A DNA stretch of 41,475 bases from a virus (lineage: Duplodnaviria; Caudoviricetes), in the IMG/VR virus record IMGVR_UViG_3300037761_000092, positions 1 through 41,475 of that record. One strand, given 5' to 3'. The translations under genes and the position numbers were made by a program. The notes under the pieces were generated by a model. That model was not told where the DNA came from. It saw only the letters and a program-made list of their open reading frames with translations, and made no database searches. Shown here piece by piece: positions 10,137 to 40,675 of the stretch (within the stretch, counting starts at the first letter, position 1; each line of letters opens with the position of its first letter).

Positions 10137-10946
10137 ATGACCCGCATCGACCTGCTCTCCAATCCCATGACCACCGCCGAGGACATCATTGTCGGCGGTG
10201 CCTCGGGCGTACCGGAGCGCCTGGCGGCGGGAGCCGAAGGCCAACTGTTGACGGTGGTCGGTGGGGTGCTGCAATGGGCGGACCCCGGCGTCGGCGGCGG
10301 CACGGCCTGGGAGGACGGCGTTCCTTCCGGCAATGGACCGGGCGGGACGGACGATGACGAGTTCGATGACGCCACCCTGACCGGCTTCACGGCGCAGACC
10401 GTTTCGGGTACGGCGACCTGGACCGAGGGCCGGGACGTGCTATCGGCCTTGTTTCATTCGCAGACCTCGGGCGACTGGGCGGCGCAGCTCAAGGCGCTGA
10501 CGACCCCGAGCGCGCCACTGGTCATTGAGACGGCGGTCCGCGTCTTCTCGCCGCATACGTCGTCTGCTCTGGTCGGGCTTCTGCTGACGGACGGGACGAC
10601 AGCCACCGCCAACTGCATCGCCGCCACGACCATCGTCACGACCAGCAACAACAACATCGTCGCTGCGCGCGGTGGGACGCTGACCGACTTTCAAAATCCG
10701 GTCCTCGACCAGCATGCCAACAGCTTCTCGATGATGATTCCGTGGCTGCACATGCGCCTGACGTGGAGCGCGGCGAACACGTTCCTCGGCGAGTGGTCAC
10801 CGGATGGTGTGACGTGGAGCGACTTCGGGCTCGGCACCCAGGCTCACACCATGACCCCGACGCACATGGGCGTGGCCGTGACGAACACTGGCGGCGGCAC
10901 GACGACCCCGCGTATCGCCACCTTCGAGTATCTGCGGCGGAGCTAG
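10137..10946 (+). CDS. second receptor-binding/tail fibre protein with lectin-like beta-sandwich
   Basis: N-terminal fibre attachment motif; DDEFD...WSPDGVTW...ATFEYLR ConA-like pattern. Confidence 0.65.
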   Translation: MTRIDLLSNPMTTAEDIIVGGASGVPERLAAGAEGQLLTVVGGVLQWADPGVGGGTAWEDGVPSGNGPGGTDDDEFDDATLTGFTAQTVSGTATWTEGRDVLSALFHSQTSGDWAAQLKALTTPSAPLVIETAVRVFSPHTSSALVGLLLTDGTTATANCIAATTIVTTSNNNIVAARGGTLTDFQNPVLDQHANSFSMMIPWLHMRLTWSAANTFLGEWSPDGVTWSDFGLGTQAHTMTPTHMGVAVTNTGGGTTTPRIATFEYLRRS

Positions 10947-11897
10947 AAACCTCGACTCGACCAACCGGAACGACAGCTCGGCGATCGCGATTGACGCCGC
11001 GATGAGCAGCACGCCGCCGAACGGAGAGTCAAGGAGCACGCCGGTCGCGCCGAACATCAGCGGAAAGTGCCATAGGTAGACGCCGTAGCTGATCCGGCCC
11101 AGCCGCCGCAACGGGGACCATTCGAGCAGGCGCGACCCGTCGAGTGATGCCGAAACAAGCCACATCGCCGCGAGGCCGGAGGCGAGCAGGCCGATGGTCA
11201 AGCCGGCCGCGTCGGGCTGTACGCTGAGCGACAGCACGACGAGCAGCACGGCCGCGACGAGCGGATGGGGCATCGTACGGCCGCTGCGCCAGGCGAAGGC
11301 CAACAGGCACCCCAGCAGTAGCGCCTCGGCTCGCACGTCGGTCCCGTAGGCCAGCCGCACGTCCGGGGCACCCGACGCCATGAGCGCCACGCGCAGCGCG
11401 AACGACGCGATGATGCCCACTACGACCAGGATCACGAAGCGGCGCGTCCCGAGCCACGGCAGCAGGGCCATGACCGCCAGCGGCCACAGCGCGTAGAAGT
11501 GCTCCTCGACCGATAGCGACCAGGTGTGAGTCAGCAACCCCACATCGCCGGTCAGGATGAGATCGACGTTGGCGACGTAGAACAGGGCCGAGGCGGCATC
11601 GCCCCATGGGCTCCGGCCCGCCACCACCTCGACCGTGGTGACGACTGCGAGGAGCACGACGAGCGCAGGCAGCAGACGACGTATGCGGCGTCGATAGAAG
11701 GCCCACAGGCCAATCGTCCCCGTGCTCCGCAACTCGGTGAGCAGCAGCGACGTGATGAGAAAGCCGGAGAGCACGAAGAACAGCGTCACGCCCACCGGCC
11801 CGCCCCCGTAGAACGGTCCGAGCTGGGCGTGTGACAGCAGCACCAGCAGGATGGCTAGGCCGCGGATGCCGTCAAGGGCCGGGCGGTGGCCTAGCAC
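10797..11897 (-). CDS. acyltransferase-3 family (OafA-like) membrane O-acetyltransferase
   Basis: PALDGIRGLA, GVTLFFVLSGFLIT, RRIRRLLP, HTWSLSVEEHFY, GRISYGVYLWH motifs; multi-TM. Confidence 0.93.
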   Translation of the reverse strand: MLGHRPALDGIRGLAILLVLLSHAQLGPFYGGGPVGVTLFFVLSGFLITSLLLTELRSTGTIGLWAFYRRRIRRLLPALVVLLAVVTTVEVVAGRSPWGDAASALFYVANVDLILTGDVGLLTHTWSLSVEEHFYALWPLAVMALLPWLGTRRFVILVVVGIIASFALRVALMASGAPDVRLAYGTDVRAEALLLGCLLAFAWRSGRTMPHPLVAAVLLVVLSLSVQPDAAGLTIGLLASGLAAMWLVSASLDGSRLLEWSPLRRLGRISYGVYLWHFPLMFGATGVLLDSPFGGVLLIAASIAIAELSFRLVESRFLAPPQILEGGDTRGRRAAASVRHGHAHVRRGHGVSLGAEPEVAPRHTIR

Positions 11898-17731: not shown

Positions 17732-18299
17732 CCGCCGACTTCCGCCAACGCAACAGCCAGTGTCCGACGTGCCGGATGCGCTGGAGGTTCCCGCAGGCCG
17801 CCGTGAGAGCCCTGTACGGGCCGCTGTATATCGACCGCAAGGCCTACCACTGGCTGGAGAACGCGGCCCGCGTGTTCGATGAGCAGTCCGAGGAACTGTT
17901 CACGGCGGCCGAGTTCGTGGCATGGGTGCGGGCCGATATCTTCGGTGAAAAGGCGTCGATGGTCGAGTTCGATGGTGCCCCGCCTCGCAACGACACTGGA
18001 AACCTCACAAAGCGCAACGACCGCAGCGCACACCGGCATCCGTTCACGCTGCCGCAGACGACGCGATGACGATTGACCTGGCCTTCTGGGCTACCTATGG
18101 CCTCGAGACTGAGCCGGCCCAACGCGTCGATGTGGAACATCAGGCCCGTGAGTGGGCGGCGAGTGAACCGCGCATAACCGCTTGCCGAATCGTCAAGGCT
18201 GAACGGCCCGACCCTGAGCGGCCGATGCGATGGACCGTCACCGTCGACGTGGACTTCGAGGAAGCGGCCGACAACCTGTCCTTGTGGGACGTGGCATGA
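17728..18299 (+). other. two coupled hypothetical ORFs (17728-18069, 18066-18299)
   Basis: ATGA coupling. Confidence 0.5.
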
Positions 18300-18538
18300 C
18301 CTACCACGTCGAGCTCCACAACCCCGCGCGCTGCTTCAGAGATGAGAACGGCGAACTGGTCTGCGAATGCGTCCCTGTAGTAGTGCGGGAATCCGATACC
18401 GAGCGGGCGCTCGCCGGCTATACTTCGAAGGTCGGAGTAAGCGACGAATCTGATACCATCCGCGCGGCCCCGTCGCTCCTGCTTACTCCAGGGACGGCGG
18501 GGTCATTGCGTGGCACAACACCGGGAGTAAGACGGTGA
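18296..18538 (+). CDS. leader ORF spanning the RNA switch, coupled (GTGA) to the rep gene
   Basis: starts at ATGA 18296 and stops over the rep start. Confidence 0.45.
   Translation: MTYHVELHNPARCFRDENGELVCECVPVVVRESDTERALAGYTSKVGVSDESDTIRAAPSLLLTPGTAGSLRGTTPGVRR
18419..18535 (+). ncRNA. structured leader/antisense-type RNA controlling the replication gene
   Basis: hairpin 18466-18504 whose loop region GCTTACTCC is complementary to 18434-18442 and to the SD 18524-18531; -10-like boxes at 18419 and 18454. Confidence 0.6.
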
Positions 18539-20075: not shown

Positions 20076-21308
20076 GCCGTCCACCGCTCCGCTTCGAGAC
20101 GATGGGGGAACCCGAACCACTCACGCCGCTGTCTAGGACGGCTGATCTATCCGAGCGGGCCTGCCAAGCTCGAAAGCGGGATGGTGCCAAGTGCGGCCAA
20201 CCATCGCGGCAATGGACGGACGGAATAGGCCTTCGCTGCTGGCGTCACCGCGAGGACCATTGGTGCCGCGTCTGCGAGAAGTCGGCATGACTTGGGTCGA
20301 TGATGCGCGGGCGCTGCGCTGGATCATGGACGCGATGGGGGAGCGTGCGGCGTGATGGCTAATCCAGGCGATTGGGCTCCCGGCGAAGGACCGGTGAAGT
20401 TCTGCCATGACCCAGCGTGCTGGCAATCTCGCTTTGGCGTACACGCCCGCCACCCAACCAGCGATGAACGGCGCGCCTACGAACTCCATGAGTACGAAGC
20501 CATGCGGGGAATCGTGGCTGACATGGGCGGCAGCGAGTCATACCAGCCCTCGGGTGACTACGCCCACGCCGACGAGACTAGGAAGCTCCGTGAGGATATC
20601 TTCGGCCTCCGCGTCGGGATCGCCGTTCTCACCATCCTCGTCCTAGTTCTGTTCATTGCTGAGGTGCTGCGATGGTGACGCGGTTCTGGAGATGGCTACG
20701 CCGCGAGGCCGTTATTGAGGCGGCCAAGCGTGAGGGCTATAACAAGGGCACCCGAGAGGCAGCCGTTACTTTGGTGGAGTTCACTAAGGTTGGCGGCCGC
20801 ATCGTCCTGACCAACGAAGCCTTTCTGCTCAACACGGTGAGCCTCGGCCTGGAGTGGGTGATCGTGCAGCCCGAGACGCCGGCCATCTTCCTCGGTATGG
20901 AGAAGACGATGTACTCCGTTGAGCGGCGGCGTGTCTTTGACGAGAAGCTGGGAATCACGCAATGAGATTCATCCAGCACAAGGACGGCGACCCGTCCAAC
21001 GTGAACCTCTCCAACCTCGAAGTCCACGACCACGCGACGGGTGACTTCACGCACCATACGTCCCGGCCGGCCTGTGTCATCTATGACGGCGCACGGGTCG
21101 TTGAGAAGGAGGGCGGCCTGTGGATTTTGCCGCCATGGGACGAGGACAAGCCATGACCCCATCCTTCCCCCTGTCCCTCCTCCTCGGCGGTCTGTTCTTC
21201 TTGGTCCTGTACCGCTTCTTCGGCCCACCCTGGGTCATAGCCGTGGGTGCCCTGCTCTTCGGCTGGGAACTGTACGGGGAGTGGCGGCTGTACCGGAGCG
21301 AGCGATGA
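20072..21308 (+). other. chain of small hypothetical ORFs (about 20072-20290, 20355-20678, 20675-20965, 20962-21156, 21153-21308)
   Basis: overlapping start/stop chain; two have TM segments. Confidence 0.5.
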
Positions 21309-25699: not shown

Positions 25700-25790
25700 G
25701 ATGGTGGCGTAACTGGTAGAATGAGCACGAAATGGCCCCGCGAGACTTGGGATCTCCGGGGCCCGGCCAAACCTTCTGCGGAGGTCTGAC

Positions 25791-26332: not shown

Positions 26333-26824
26333 GTGTTTGCCATGCTCCTGACTCCCCTCACGACGCCGGCACCCGTTAGCGCCTGCGAGTACGCCGGGAC
26401 GAGCTGGTACAACCCGACCGGCTGGCAGGGCTGTGAACAATGGGGGACCGGGCAGGCTTCGATGTGGGGCGGTCCGGGCGCTGCCTCCAATGACTGTCTG
26501 CACCCTTGGACCGATTGCGCTCCGAGGATCGTGATCAGCCTCGACACCGGGCGGTCCCTGCTCATCGTCCCGGTCATGTTCTGCGGCTGTTTCGTGAAGG
26601 GCGTCGGCCCCAACGGCGAGACCGCTCGACTTATCGACTTGGACCCGTCACAGGTGGCGGCGCTCGGCCTTGACGCCTCACAAGGATTGTTCGCGATTCG
26701 CGTCGAGCCCGCCACCGTAGTTCTGCCGGATACGGCCGTTACTCATACAGCAGGCATTGGTTCACGAAGCAATCGTGCTCATGCTCAAGGCGTCGGTTTA
26801 GGGTCTCTCGTAGCTGCTCGATGA
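26333..26824 (+). CDS. secreted RlpA/double-psi-barrel-like protein (start possibly CTG 26318)
   Basis: signal-like N-terminus; GQASMWG...TGRS...RLIDLDPSQVAALGL; LPDTA motif. Confidence 0.55.
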   Translation: MFAMLLTPLTTPAPVSACEYAGTSWYNPTGWQGCEQWGTGQASMWGGPGAASNDCLHPWTDCAPRIVISLDTGRSLLIVPVMFCGCFVKGVGPNGETARLIDLDPSQVAALGLDASQGLFAIRVEPATVVLPDTAVTHTAGIGSRSNRAHAQGVGLGSLVAAR

Positions 26825-27110
26825 AGTAGCCGTCGTCCTCATCCTTGATCTCGGGGATGGCCCGCTCCAAGGCGATTGTCAGGTATCGGATGCGGTTGGA
26901 GATTGCTTGGCGGAGACGCTTGCGCGTTTCGTAGTGCGCTTCCGTCCCGACGCCTTGCCCGATCCAATAGGCGGCGTCCTCCAATTGGGTGAGCGTCGAG
27001 GCTAGGAACATGGGTCCGTCGTAGTTCTCCCATGTCTCTGTGTCGCGAACCTCAAGGTTCTCCCGATTGTTATTCGCCGGGTCGCCGTCCTTGTGGTGAA
27101 CGTACCGCAC
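26739..27110 (-). CDS. opposite-strand protein with N-terminal half-HNH motif
   Basis: VHHKDGDPANNNRENLEV; own -10 (TATGAT 27202-27197) and GGAGCAAGG RBS. Confidence 0.65.
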   Translation of the reverse strand: MRYVHHKDGDPANNNRENLEVRDTETWENYDGPMFLASTLTQLEDAAYWIGQGVGTEAHYETRKRLRQAISNRIRYLTIALERAIPEIKDEDDGYFIEQLRETLNRRLEHEHDCFVNQCLLYE

Positions 27111-27128
27111 TTCCTTGCTCCAATCAAA

Positions 27129-27190
27129 TGCCCCGATCCTGTGGAATCAGCACAGAACCGGGGCAACGAAATGACCTGCTGATTCCAGGT
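27129..27190 (-). ncRNA. two-hairpin leader with complementary loops
   Basis: TGGAATCAGCA (27142-27152) and TGCTGATTCCA (27177-27187) each centred on a hairpin loop. Confidence 0.6.
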
Positions 27191-27222
27191 GCAACCATCA
27201 TACACCCGAGGTCAACGGCCCG

Positions 27223-27489
27223 GTGGAGAAGCATCCCGCCGCTCTCATGATCTGCCACGAGCACGTCGATGAAAAGGCGGCGAGCTCGGCCCGGCCGGAG
27301 ACGTATGCGTTCTGCAACCTACCGGCCCATGGCTGGTGCCTCGACGACAGGACGTACATCTGCGAGATCCATCTCGTCGCCCGCCACGAGCGGCACCGCA
27401 TCCAGAGTGTGAGCGACGAGCGCTCGGAGGGCTTTCGCGAGGTGAGTGACGTTCGGGATCGGCGCTCAGGCGACGAGCGGCGCAAGTGA
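27223..27489 (+). CDS. Cys/His-rich hypothetical protein
   Basis: GTGA-coupled to the endolysin; start uncertain. Confidence 0.4.
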   Translation: MEKHPAALMICHEHVDEKAASSARPETYAFCNLPAHGWCLDDRTYICEIHLVARHERHRIQSVSDERSEGFREVSDVRDRRSGDERRK

Positions 27490-28331: not shown

Positions 28332-29181
28332 GTGACTTCGGCGGGATTGTGTTCATCTTCTGCTTCCTAGCGCTCATCGGTATGGCGATCGCGGGGCAGA
28401 TTCAGTACCACCGCGTGAAGGGCCAGATAGAACACTTCAATGCCGATCGGCCGGTCGATCCCGAGCTGGGGATTGTGGACCCCCGTAACCCGCAGATGTG
28501 GTGAAGGGTAATCGTGGGATGACGAGAGCCGTTGACCCTGAGCAGGGCGAGGTTTGCATCCGCTGGGCGGTTGGACCCGATGGAGTGCGCCAAGAGGATT
28601 ACGCCACGTCCTATGTCGTCCTGTGGCACGACCAGTTCGGAACACGTCACGCCGCTGCCCAGCACACGGTTAGTGACGACAACCCCGACTCGGACTTGAT
28701 GGATGCGCTGTCGTTTGAGGCAGCACGACAACTTCTGGAGGCTGCTGATGGCGATACCTCGTAGGTGTGAGGGTAAGCCCGTGGATTTGGGAGATGGAAC
28801 CTTCATCGACGGGGTATCGCCGGAGCAGCATCAGTACGTCGAAGGCCCTGTCTATGAGGGTCCGGGCCCGGAAGGCGAGGACCCGGTTCGATGGGAGACG
28901 CTGGTGTGTGAGAACTGCGGCTACGTATTCTCCGGCTGGACGCGGATGCCGACTCCTGTGTTCGTATGACCGCAGAGCTCGTCGTCGGCGACTGGATCGT
29001 CCGACAGAAACTCCGCATCCCGCACCTCGTGGAATCGCTCGTCTCAGGCGACGTAATCACGAGATGCGGCAAGAGGCTCAAGGATGAACCGACGAAGACG
29101 GGCGGACCCCTTCTCCTGGCCGTGATGGAAGGCGGATTCTCGGCCCGAAACTGCCAAGTCTGCACCTACCGAAAAGGGTAA
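28328..29181 (+). other. four small ORFs (28328-28504 TM, about 28519-28764, 28748-28969, 28966-29181)
   Basis: coupled ORFs in the late region. Confidence 0.45.
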
Positions 29182-29253
29182 AATCTGGGTACTGAATGGC
29201 CCCGCGCGCGCTAACGCCGGGGCCGTGGACCGTACCTGTCAGGAGGCACGATC

Positions 29254-34106: not shown

Positions 34107-34160
34107 AGGGGTCGGAGCTAGAGCCTCCGGCCCCTTCCCATGCCTGGCTCTAGGAGGCAT
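34107..34160 (+). ncRNA. two-hairpin leader with complementary loops sequestering an SD
   Basis: stems 34107-34135 and 34140-34160; CTAGAGCC vs GGCTCTAG. Confidence 0.6.
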
Positions 34161-34161
34161 C

Positions 34162-34764
34162 GTGGCTCGAAACGTAGGTCCAGCTTGTCGTTGGACTCCA
34201 CCGACCATGGACCCACAACAAAAACCTTGTCGGCGATGCTTGCTCATTCGCCCCATCACCGACTTCGGCAGACTTGCCCACACGCGGGACGGTCTATCGA
34301 GTTGGTGTACGCCTTGCCATCGTGCGACAGTCGGAGCTAATCGGCAGGAGTACCAGCGGCGCTATCGAGAGAGAAACGGCGAAGCGATCAAGGTACGTGA
34401 ACGCGCACGCTACCAATCTCGACCGCTTCGCCCGAAGCCGTGTGAGACATGCGGTGAGGTGTTCATACCGATAGAACGGAACCAGCAACGCTACTGTTCG
34501 GTAGAGCACCGAGAGCTGCGTCATCGGCTTCGGCCGGCTGTCCCTAAGAATCTCCGACGCAAGGTGCTCGCACGCGATGACTGGACTTGCTACTTGTGCG
34601 GCGGAGCGATCCCTGAATGGGTGCCGTGGCCGCACCAACTTGCCGGGACAGCGGATCACGTTATTCCGTGGATCGCGGGCGGCAAGGGAACACTCGATAA
34701 CCTACGCGCCGCTCATTGGGCCTGCAATCGTAAGAAGGCGGGCAGGCTCTTGGAGGTCGCATAG
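34162..34764 (+). CDS. HNH endonuclease with Zn-finger modules
   Basis: VLARDDWTCYLCG...DHVIP...GG..DNLRAAHWACN. Confidence 0.85.
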   Translation: MARNVGPACRWTPPTMDPQQKPCRRCLLIRPITDFGRLAHTRDGLSSWCTPCHRATVGANRQEYQRRYRERNGEAIKVRERARYQSRPLRPKPCETCGEVFIPIERNQQRYCSVEHRELRHRLRPAVPKNLRRKVLARDDWTCYLCGGAIPEWVPWPHQLAGTADHVIPWIAGGKGTLDNLRAAHWACNRKKAGRLLEVA

Positions 34765-40634: not shown

Positions 40635-40675
40635 TACAATGGGCGGGTAAGTCCGCATCGGGTTACCCGCCCATG
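40635..40675 (+). promoter_or_regulatory. -10 box plus hairpin occluding the HNH start codon
   Basis: TACAAT 40635; ATGGGCGGGTAA(40639-50)/TTACCCGCCCAT(40663-74). Confidence 0.7.

Follow-up and report, generated by a model that had tools for sequence, protein, structure and literature searches.

A phage leader with complementary hairpin loops is a candidate transcription attenuator and belongs to a family with co-varying loop addresses

The CI RNA of P4 pairs with seqA and seqC, resulting in termination, and the IsrK RNA of Gifsy-1, which ends at a terminator, acts on the longer transcript that results from read-through; both are precedents for control of a transcript by an RNA that is terminated within, or processed from, its own leader (PMC4825925). 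The C4 RNA of P1 and P7 is described as three stem-loops with two antisense loops, a′ and b′, which is processed by RNase P and bears its addresses in loops (PMC5320573). In pIP501, attenuation is exerted by RNAIII, an RNA from a convergent promoter (PMC4981023), and in the I-complex plasmids a kissing complex forms on stem-loop I (PMC10724649). Endonuclease genes of T4 carry hairpins that hide the ribosome binding site (RBS) (PMC2988022).

Here, we analyze a leader on the minus strand of a phage genome in which the loops of two successive hairpins are exact complements, together with sister elements before a rep-like gene (the rep leader) and at position 34162 (the 34162 leader). The window, that is, the whole stretch of DNA analyzed, is one phage record (41,475 bases; GC content 64%) that ends in direct terminal repeats, and the genes encoded in it include those for terminase and the major head protein. 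Behind the tail genes, a gene in antisense orientation (10797–11897, minus strand) encodes a membrane protein that by eye resembles acyltransferases and is a candidate for moron-like modification of the surface. The rep-like protein has relatives in five assembled genomes (labeled Anaerolinea, Ca. Limnocylindrales, Acidimicrobiales, Vicinamibacteria, and Chloroflexia) and in 3 of 401 genomes from the class of the Limnocylindrales genome; these few relatives weakly suggest that the phage host is probably a member of Chloroflexota.

By analogy, the minus-strand leader would function like the P4 CI, P1 C4, and pIP501 control RNAs, yet without their defining features. As described for P4, the RNA made from the leader is complementary to another part of the same leader and control would operate via premature termination, and the rep leader also has the order target, antisense, target (PMC4825925). 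However, the minus-strand leader has a single address of 6–7 nt, placed in the loop of the predicted intrinsic terminator itself, and it has the upstream site only, with no downstream target, whereas the rep leader has both. The likeness to C4 consists in short loop addresses that set specificity and differ between phages and, in sister elements, in an antisense loop covering the RBS, but the minus-strand leader has two hairpins and one antisense loop in place of the C4 arrangement as reported (PMC5320573). Moreover, it has no RBS target, which was found only in the rep and 34162 leaders. P1 C4 targets icd/ant, whereas the genes downstream of the elements described here are endonuclease-like, rep-like, or of no known function. 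Like IsrK, the leader would combine a promoter, a short intrinsically terminated RNA, and partial read-through, with the short RNA acting on its own long form; IsrK, however, activates translation by invading a long helix, whereas the loop–loop match is here predicted to affect termination (PMC4825925).

With pIP501 and pT181, the leader shares a loop–loop recognition that would decide between terminator and antiterminator, and one of its sisters precedes a rep-like gene; in these plasmids, according to the cited text, the antisense RNA comes from a convergent promoter, whereas here the complement lies on the same strand (PMC4981023). A motif scan for TAnnnT on the antisense strand within 100 nt found boxes in two of five elements, at unrelated positions, and none in the other three, the minus-strand leader included. 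The IncI/IncB systems likewise have a hairpin loop for which a cis and a trans partner compete, and loop letters that define incompatibility, but control there is translational and employs a counter-transcript, whereas the minus-strand leader has no Shine–Dalgarno (SD) partner (PMC10724649). Finally, as in T4-type homing endonuclease genes, leader structure would limit selfish endonuclease genes, and several sister elements precede HNH- or EndoVII-type genes; the T4 hairpins, as presented in the source, are single, are switched by promoter choice, and lack complementary loops (PMC2988022).

The minus-strand leader and the gene behind it

The leader is located antisense between a small gene (26333–26824) and the M23 peptidase gene at 27486. 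Reading along the minus strand, its putative promoter is a −10 box, TATGAT (27197–27202), without a −35 element at normal spacing; a consensus scan found no full promoter at the element and, therefore, only the −10 box was counted. From a start predicted near 27190, the RNA would open with H1 (ACCTG-GAATCAG-CAGGT, 27174–27190), a 5-bp, predicted 5′-terminal hairpin and predicted antiterminator strand whose loop a reads GAAUCAG (27185–27179). A linker of 8 nt (27166–27173), short relative to both stems, leads to H2 (27129–27165), a GC-rich 15-bp hairpin with two G–U pairs and the loop a′ CUGAUUC (CTGATTC in DNA; 27150–27144). With a stability of −27 kcal/mol and, directly on its 3′ side, a U-rich tract (27122–27128) that is weak and interrupted (5 T in 8), H2 is a predicted intrinsic terminator, and it was terminator-like in a scan. 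The SD sequence GGAG (27118–27121) stands 7 nt before the GTG start (27110–27108) and is not complementary to loop a′ (computed pairing −3.8 kcal/mol), that is, it carries no copy of the address.

The letters named in the preliminary description (the −10 box, both hairpins with their loops, and the GTG) were all found on the minus strand, the GTG just beyond the range of 27111–27216 given for the element, and the claimed exact complementarity of the loops over 11 nt, flanks counted, was borne out. That description overlooked, however, the U-rich tail at 27128–27122, the address copy on the SD of the rep leader, and a further loop pair at 34118/34146. A short inverted repeat surrounds the −10 box (27191–27210, minus strand) and was seen only here and in one close relative (L227:2480–2505, plus strand); an operator role is conceivable, as is pairing of the repeat with the H1 5′ arm in read-through transcripts.

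Among 165 hairpins per strand with a 7-nt loop and at least four Watson–Crick pairs, a complementary loop within 120 nt was found only for the minus-strand leader and the rep leader, and none of 100 dinucleotide shuffles yielded a tandem loop-matched pair. The folding z-score was about −3.0 on the minus strand versus −1.7 on the plus strand, and H2 has a stability of −27.0 kcal/mol on the minus strand versus −20.8 kcal/mol on the plus strand; the two G–U pairs mark the minus strand as the folded one. We conclude that the leader is a real, selected RNA element.

The cargo ORF behind the leader (26739–27110, minus strand) encodes 123 aa, with an N-terminal HNH_3-like fragment (residues 1–21) below the Pfam cut-off, followed by a predicted helical part; by eye, the last metal-binding histidine of the HNH motif is missing. 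Its composition is gene-like (GC1/2/3 of 0.63/0.35/0.76) and it has an SD, and these features, together with its location in a segment that is replaced in a co-occurring variant, make the antisense gene postulated earlier look real. No full-length relatives were found among 5.8 billion similar-length proteins or 1.84 billion representatives, the hits obtained for the protein against the atlas were all below 0.9, and a single-sequence structure model had a pLDDT of 52. The product is unlikely to be an intact nuclease, and a role in lysis is not indicated. The lysis region named earlier is a link by position only: in a relative, the same element precedes an HNH endonuclease gene beside a long structural-looking gene.

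Leader and gene together make up a swappable segment (26735–27196, minus strand), in place of which one contig (depth 5.3) carries about 228 other bases. This single contig, from a run that is possibly the source of the window, links 26734 to 27197 and retains the −10 box, so that precisely the leader and its gene are replaced. If the loose end of the contig is assumed to adjoin 27197, its minus strand shows 6 nt and then another 5-bp hairpin, GTCGC-ATCGGGAA-GCGAC, which occupies the position of H1. Two other sequencing runs contained only small shares of the window, outside the element, and none of the runs listed as containing the sequence was an RNA library. The plus-strand ORF at 26333–26824 overlaps the end of the cargo ORF by 86 nt and crosses the exchange point 26734, so that its C-terminal tail may stem from cassette insertion. 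A second plus-strand ORF (20951–21156; ORF 20962) shares the N-terminal HNH_3-like motif with the cargo ORF (16 of 26 residues identical), and its RBS region contains 7 nt complementary to loop a′.

Related elements in the window and in other phages

On the plus strand, the rep leader (18419–18537) has a −10 box, TATACT, and three hairpins before the rep-like gene. The loops of H1 (GAGUAAG, 18435–18441) and H2 (CUUACUC, 18482–18488) are followed by H3 (18519–18537), which places a third address copy on the SD and holds the GTG start in its stem; the wiring is a-a′-a, whereas the minus-strand copy has no SD partner. The two-letter difference between the loops of the two copies, with the matching change in the partner, had been described correctly. 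As to the homologous look of the copies, the sequence likeness is weak (a model including the minus-strand leader scores the rep copy at 12.3 bits, E 3.5), and they are not the same kind of switch, because the minus-strand leader has no SD loop partner (−3.8 kcal/mol) and has a U-tail. A frame of 80 codons (18296–18538, plus strand) spans the entire rep leader, its stop overlapping the rep GTG; it may be a leader-peptide-like frame for translational coupling or a disrupted gene.

The third address pair (34107–34164, plus strand) consists of an H2 loop, CUAGAGC (34118–34124), and the loop of an SD hairpin, GGCUCUAGG (34146–34154), and precedes an HNH/EndoVII-type gene; the same address is found in the rep leader of L116. 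Computed pairing of the three pairs in the window was −13.6 to −14.0 kcal/mol for cognate loops, compared with −7.2 kcal/mol for the best non-cognate combination, so the three addresses of this genome are predicted to be mutually orthogonal. The orthogonality proposed in the preliminary description thus has predicted support within the genome but is only partial between phages: the first loops of two other phages (G026 and L106) pair with the second loop of the minus-strand leader at −13.6 kcal/mol, and the address of G026 is identical to that in the rep leader of L106. In the leaders of two other HNH genes (25715–25790 and 29180–29253, plus strand), a −10 box is accompanied by an H2-like hairpin (GGCCCCG...CGGGGCC) and a hairpin at the SD (CCT...AGG), without a clear loop partner; they are possibly degenerate members of the family. 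At 40635–40675 (plus strand), an HNH-like gene has TACAAT and then a single strong hairpin enclosing the ATG.

For other phages, a search with 39 aligned rep proteins gave 80 metagenome, 22 viral, and 5 genome loci, and whole related viral records were also read. We kept 20 elements, most of them found by demanding loop complementarity, and these fall into three wirings. In type A (n = 6, including the rep leader of the window), the H1 loop a and the H2 loop a′ are followed by a third copy of a at the SD or start; in type B (n = 9, including the 34118 element), the partner of the H2 loop is presented by a hairpin further downstream, in most cases on the SD; in type C (five distinct sequences in six records), to which the minus-strand leader belongs, H1 and H2 occur without an SD partner. 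The G–U pairs speak for the sense RNA strand in each of the five elements of type C and in 17 of the 20 overall. A TAnnnT box, with a chance of 0.5% per position, ends 10–12 nt upstream of loop 1 in 10 of the 11 elements with a first hairpin (types A and C), and H1 begins 6–7 nt past the −10 box; this fixed distance predicts H1 as the extreme 5′ end of the RNA. A U-tail (at least 5 T in 8, as at 0.68% of genome positions) is present in 5/5 type C elements versus 0/15 others. The a′ loop contains a YUNR word, typical of loops in antisense recognition, in all type C elements (that of the minus-strand leader begins with it), in four of six of type A, and in two of nine of type B.

Besides the minus-strand leader, type C comprises four other sequence variants in related phage records, with the same layout, co-varying loops, and different genes downstream. 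The closest one, G180 (86% identity over 101 nt), is also antisense in a late region and has the same promoter box, an identical linker, and the same SD (GGAG kept before another gene, an unrelated 81-aa ORF), with both loops altered in step (GUUCAG/CUGAAC). G005 (81% identity over 65 nt; GAUCAG/CUGAUC) precedes an ORF that by eye resembles endonuclease VII, and G001 and G181 share an identical element (GGUUCAG/CUGAACC) upstream of a gene for an HNH endonuclease, assigned at E 1e-28 in G001. G026 has a full promoter, TTGACA-17-TAAGAT, a tail of 7 T, and the loops GAGUCAG/CUGACUC, its contig stopping about 30 nt past H2. The pattern that yielded G180 left the variable loop letters free and matched 22 loci, 17 non-matching and 5 complementary, of which 4 had the two-hairpin fold as judged by eye. 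Chance would produce the match at the free letters of G180 about once in 16, and G180 is the sole unbiased hit of this pattern because G001 and G005 had shaped it; since G001, G005, and G026 were initially found by requiring complementarity, G180 and the following test are the evidence free of this bias.

Given that most elements were found through the complementarity requirement, a test defined by position was run on rep leaders. From the 107 loci and the window, 54 rep starts had 130 nt upstream, and 52 were left after removal of near-duplicates. A strong hairpin with a loop of 6–8 nt was present in 15 of these 52, and 8 of the 15, the window's own included, had a downstream loop partner: all eight hairpins at −24 kcal/mol or better, and none of the seven weaker ones. 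As a control, loops were exchanged between rep leaders, which gave a partner in 5 of 210 trials. Most rep relatives thus lack the element, but those with the strong hairpin preserve the match while differing in its letters. Together with the elements of types A, B, and C, this supports the existence of the family with co-varying loop addresses that the preliminary description had suggested. Pair counts in alignment A7 (85% paired; 0/500 shuffles) are supporting evidence only, because the model-fitted alignment misplaces several 6-nt loops and leans to structure.

Loosened descriptors carry a real background (14 hits in 2.4 Mb versus 15 in 0.8 Mb, and 9 versus 24 in 1.29 Mb), and their hits were retained only if located directly before rep- or endonuclease-type genes or behind a −10 box. 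The H2-only pattern matched 18 loci in viral contigs, none with a nearby partner, and the mixed-address pattern 16 loci, four of them complementary, with G026 alone having two hairpins. The exact top-stem pattern returned five loci (the already known G005 and four by chance), and the linker 16-mer three (the already known G180 and two by chance). No match was obtained by blastn against isolated phages and plasmids, and 0 of 21 related records matched. Model R1 found none in the 151 genomes searched from the class of a Limnocylindrales genome, and its weak hits in loci lacked the design; the G-GANNNAG-C motif pair was absent from the first four rep relatives. In Rfam, the window had no match at the gathering threshold, with only sub-threshold miRNA hits on the element, and the elements of seven related loci had no hit at E ≤ 1; the C4 antisense RNA is family RF01695 there. 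Full-text searches, mainly of papers outside subscription journals, yielded no description of this design, and large motif catalogues could contain one (PMC8040213). The loop-matched phage leaders are thus apparently a family so far undescribed. Two three-hairpin elements with the address AGUGAC and a TTGACA-17 promoter (L061:1790–1910 and L086:2040–2160, both plus strand) precede ORFs of 51–55 aa with a single membrane helix, an arrangement that recalls tightly repressed small membrane proteins.

Proposed attenuation and its alternatives

Our preferred reading, to which we assign a probability of about 45%, is that the leader is a promoter-proximal transcription attenuator, its terminator loop being captured by the H1 loop, and not a translation switch. 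During synthesis, the H1 loop would capture the complementary loop of the terminator hairpin, and some polymerases would read into the small swappable gene. H1 would serve as a decoy in cis and switch expression on: in type C it would delay the terminator, and in type A it would spare the SD copy. In the rep leader, the same logic would have H1 capture a′ and set the SD copy of a free. A terminated RNA of about 65–70 nt would accumulate, and its exposed a′ loop could bind loop a of newly started transcripts in trans, block cis capture, and force termination, resulting in a short burst of expression followed by shut-off by RNA of the same address. Such shut-off would give a reason for different addresses in one genome. 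In known systems, however, processing separates the trans RNA from its 5′ partner, whereas here H1 would be retained and self-pairing would be possible, and a purely cis pair would co-vary identically.

In step-wise minimum-free-energy folding, which leaves out polymerase and pseudoknots, a loop:loop helix of 11–14 bp dominates the transcript at 47–57 nt, when the top of H2 is unable to close, and the terminator prevails from 59 nt. In each of the five type C elements, the loop:loop helix has a probability of 0.94–1.0 up to the point at which the lower GC stem has been synthesized, and mutually exclusive terminator and antiterminator folds are likewise predicted in 5/5. Scrambling the H1 loop led to terminator closure about 6 nt earlier. 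The equilibrium fold of the finished RNA has two hairpins (−32.5 versus −19.4 kcal/mol), so that any antitermination would have to be kinetic; the one long duplex that the preliminary description had named as a contrary outcome is not predicted for the finished RNA, given this advantage of 13 kcal/mol. In transient folds, the 5′ arm of H1 additionally pairs with the 3′ arm of H2, but this pairing was not counted, as it clearly beats the symmetric alternative in only 1 of 11 elements. Counting against attenuation, the U-tail is weak (5 of 8, interrupted), and there are only five distinct type C sequences.

In a first alternative, which is unlikely, the unit would be mainly a small RNA gene, consisting of promoter and terminator; the trans targets of its loops would be leaders with a matching address, in front of other genes or in rival phages, and the cargo would be expressed only by leak. 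G026, with its full promoter, its tail of 7 T, and an address that recurs unchanged in a rep leader of another phage (L106), would suit such a gene, as would the match to loop a′ in the RBS region of the paralogous ORF 20962. However, no comparable cognate target was found before a convincing gene in G180, G001, G181, G005, or G026, several of which are incomplete records, and the matches at gene starts did not exceed those of the controls, non-cognate addresses hitting ORF starts about equally often, and an SD with the cargo gene follows directly downstream in four of five cases (the G026 contig ends).

We give slightly less weight still to a static arrangement, in which the loop–loop pair is a tertiary contact or a dimer interface that lends stability to the leader or terminator, with fixed low expression and drifting letters, and no switch. 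Purely cis co-variation explains all comparative data, addresses overlap between phages, and the cargo genes include endonucleases, the translation of which, as reported for the cases in the source, is often damped by leader hairpins (PMC2988022). Against this, the 8-nt linker looks too short, from geometry, to bridge about 27 bp of coaxial stacking if neither stem opens, and the a-a′-a sister elements give one loop two exclusive partners, which suggests switching.

A translation switch like that of IncI repZ, in which loop pairing would draw the linker off the RBS or start codon and turn translation on, is improbable for the minus-strand leader. One fold does pair the linker and the H2 5′ arm with the SD–start region, and the sister elements with an SD partner are most simply translational, but the SD here has no address copy (−3.8 kcal/mol), holding the 5′ part away changes predicted SD accessibility only from 0.51 to 0.58, without a consistent shift in four elements, and the U-tail is specific to type C. 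The least probable reading places the feature in the DNA, as inverted sites for recombination or for an operator that share a 7-bp core, or explains it as a by-product of template switching between nearby inverted repeats: the two 11-mers are an inverted repeat in DNA and the exchanged segment of the variant starts just past the −10 box, but the G–U pairs favor the sense RNA strand, the stems differ between sites with the match limited to loop and closing pairs, the position behind the −10 box is fixed, and the exchange points lie outside both sites, with no inversion joint listed. REP/REPIN doublets, tRNA remnants, ribozymes, pRNA, and HK022 put were dropped on anatomy.

Implications for phage RNA control

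If the attenuator reading is true, the leader would be a protein-free attenuator of about 70 nt in which the sensing site is the terminator's own loop, and RNA control of the C4/CI type would be extended to an unstudied phage group. Such control would also account for the restraint of replication and selfish endonuclease genes where no repressor acts on them. The natural variants with re-coded loops are ready-made compensatory pairs, so that the question of cis versus trans action is directly testable, and they could serve as compact orthogonal parts.

A broader reading, which we regard as rather doubtful, is that one minimal part, a stable hairpin with an antisense loop of 6–8 nt, is used in three wirings (a 5′ decoy with a terminator, a 5′ decoy with an SD target, or an SD target alone), the terminated RNAs being address-specific trans counters that throttle cassettes or co-infecting phages of the same address. 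Were this true, these phages would hold a natural orthogonal library of self-limiting switches, and the addresses would define RNA immunity groups for rep and homing-endonuclease genes.
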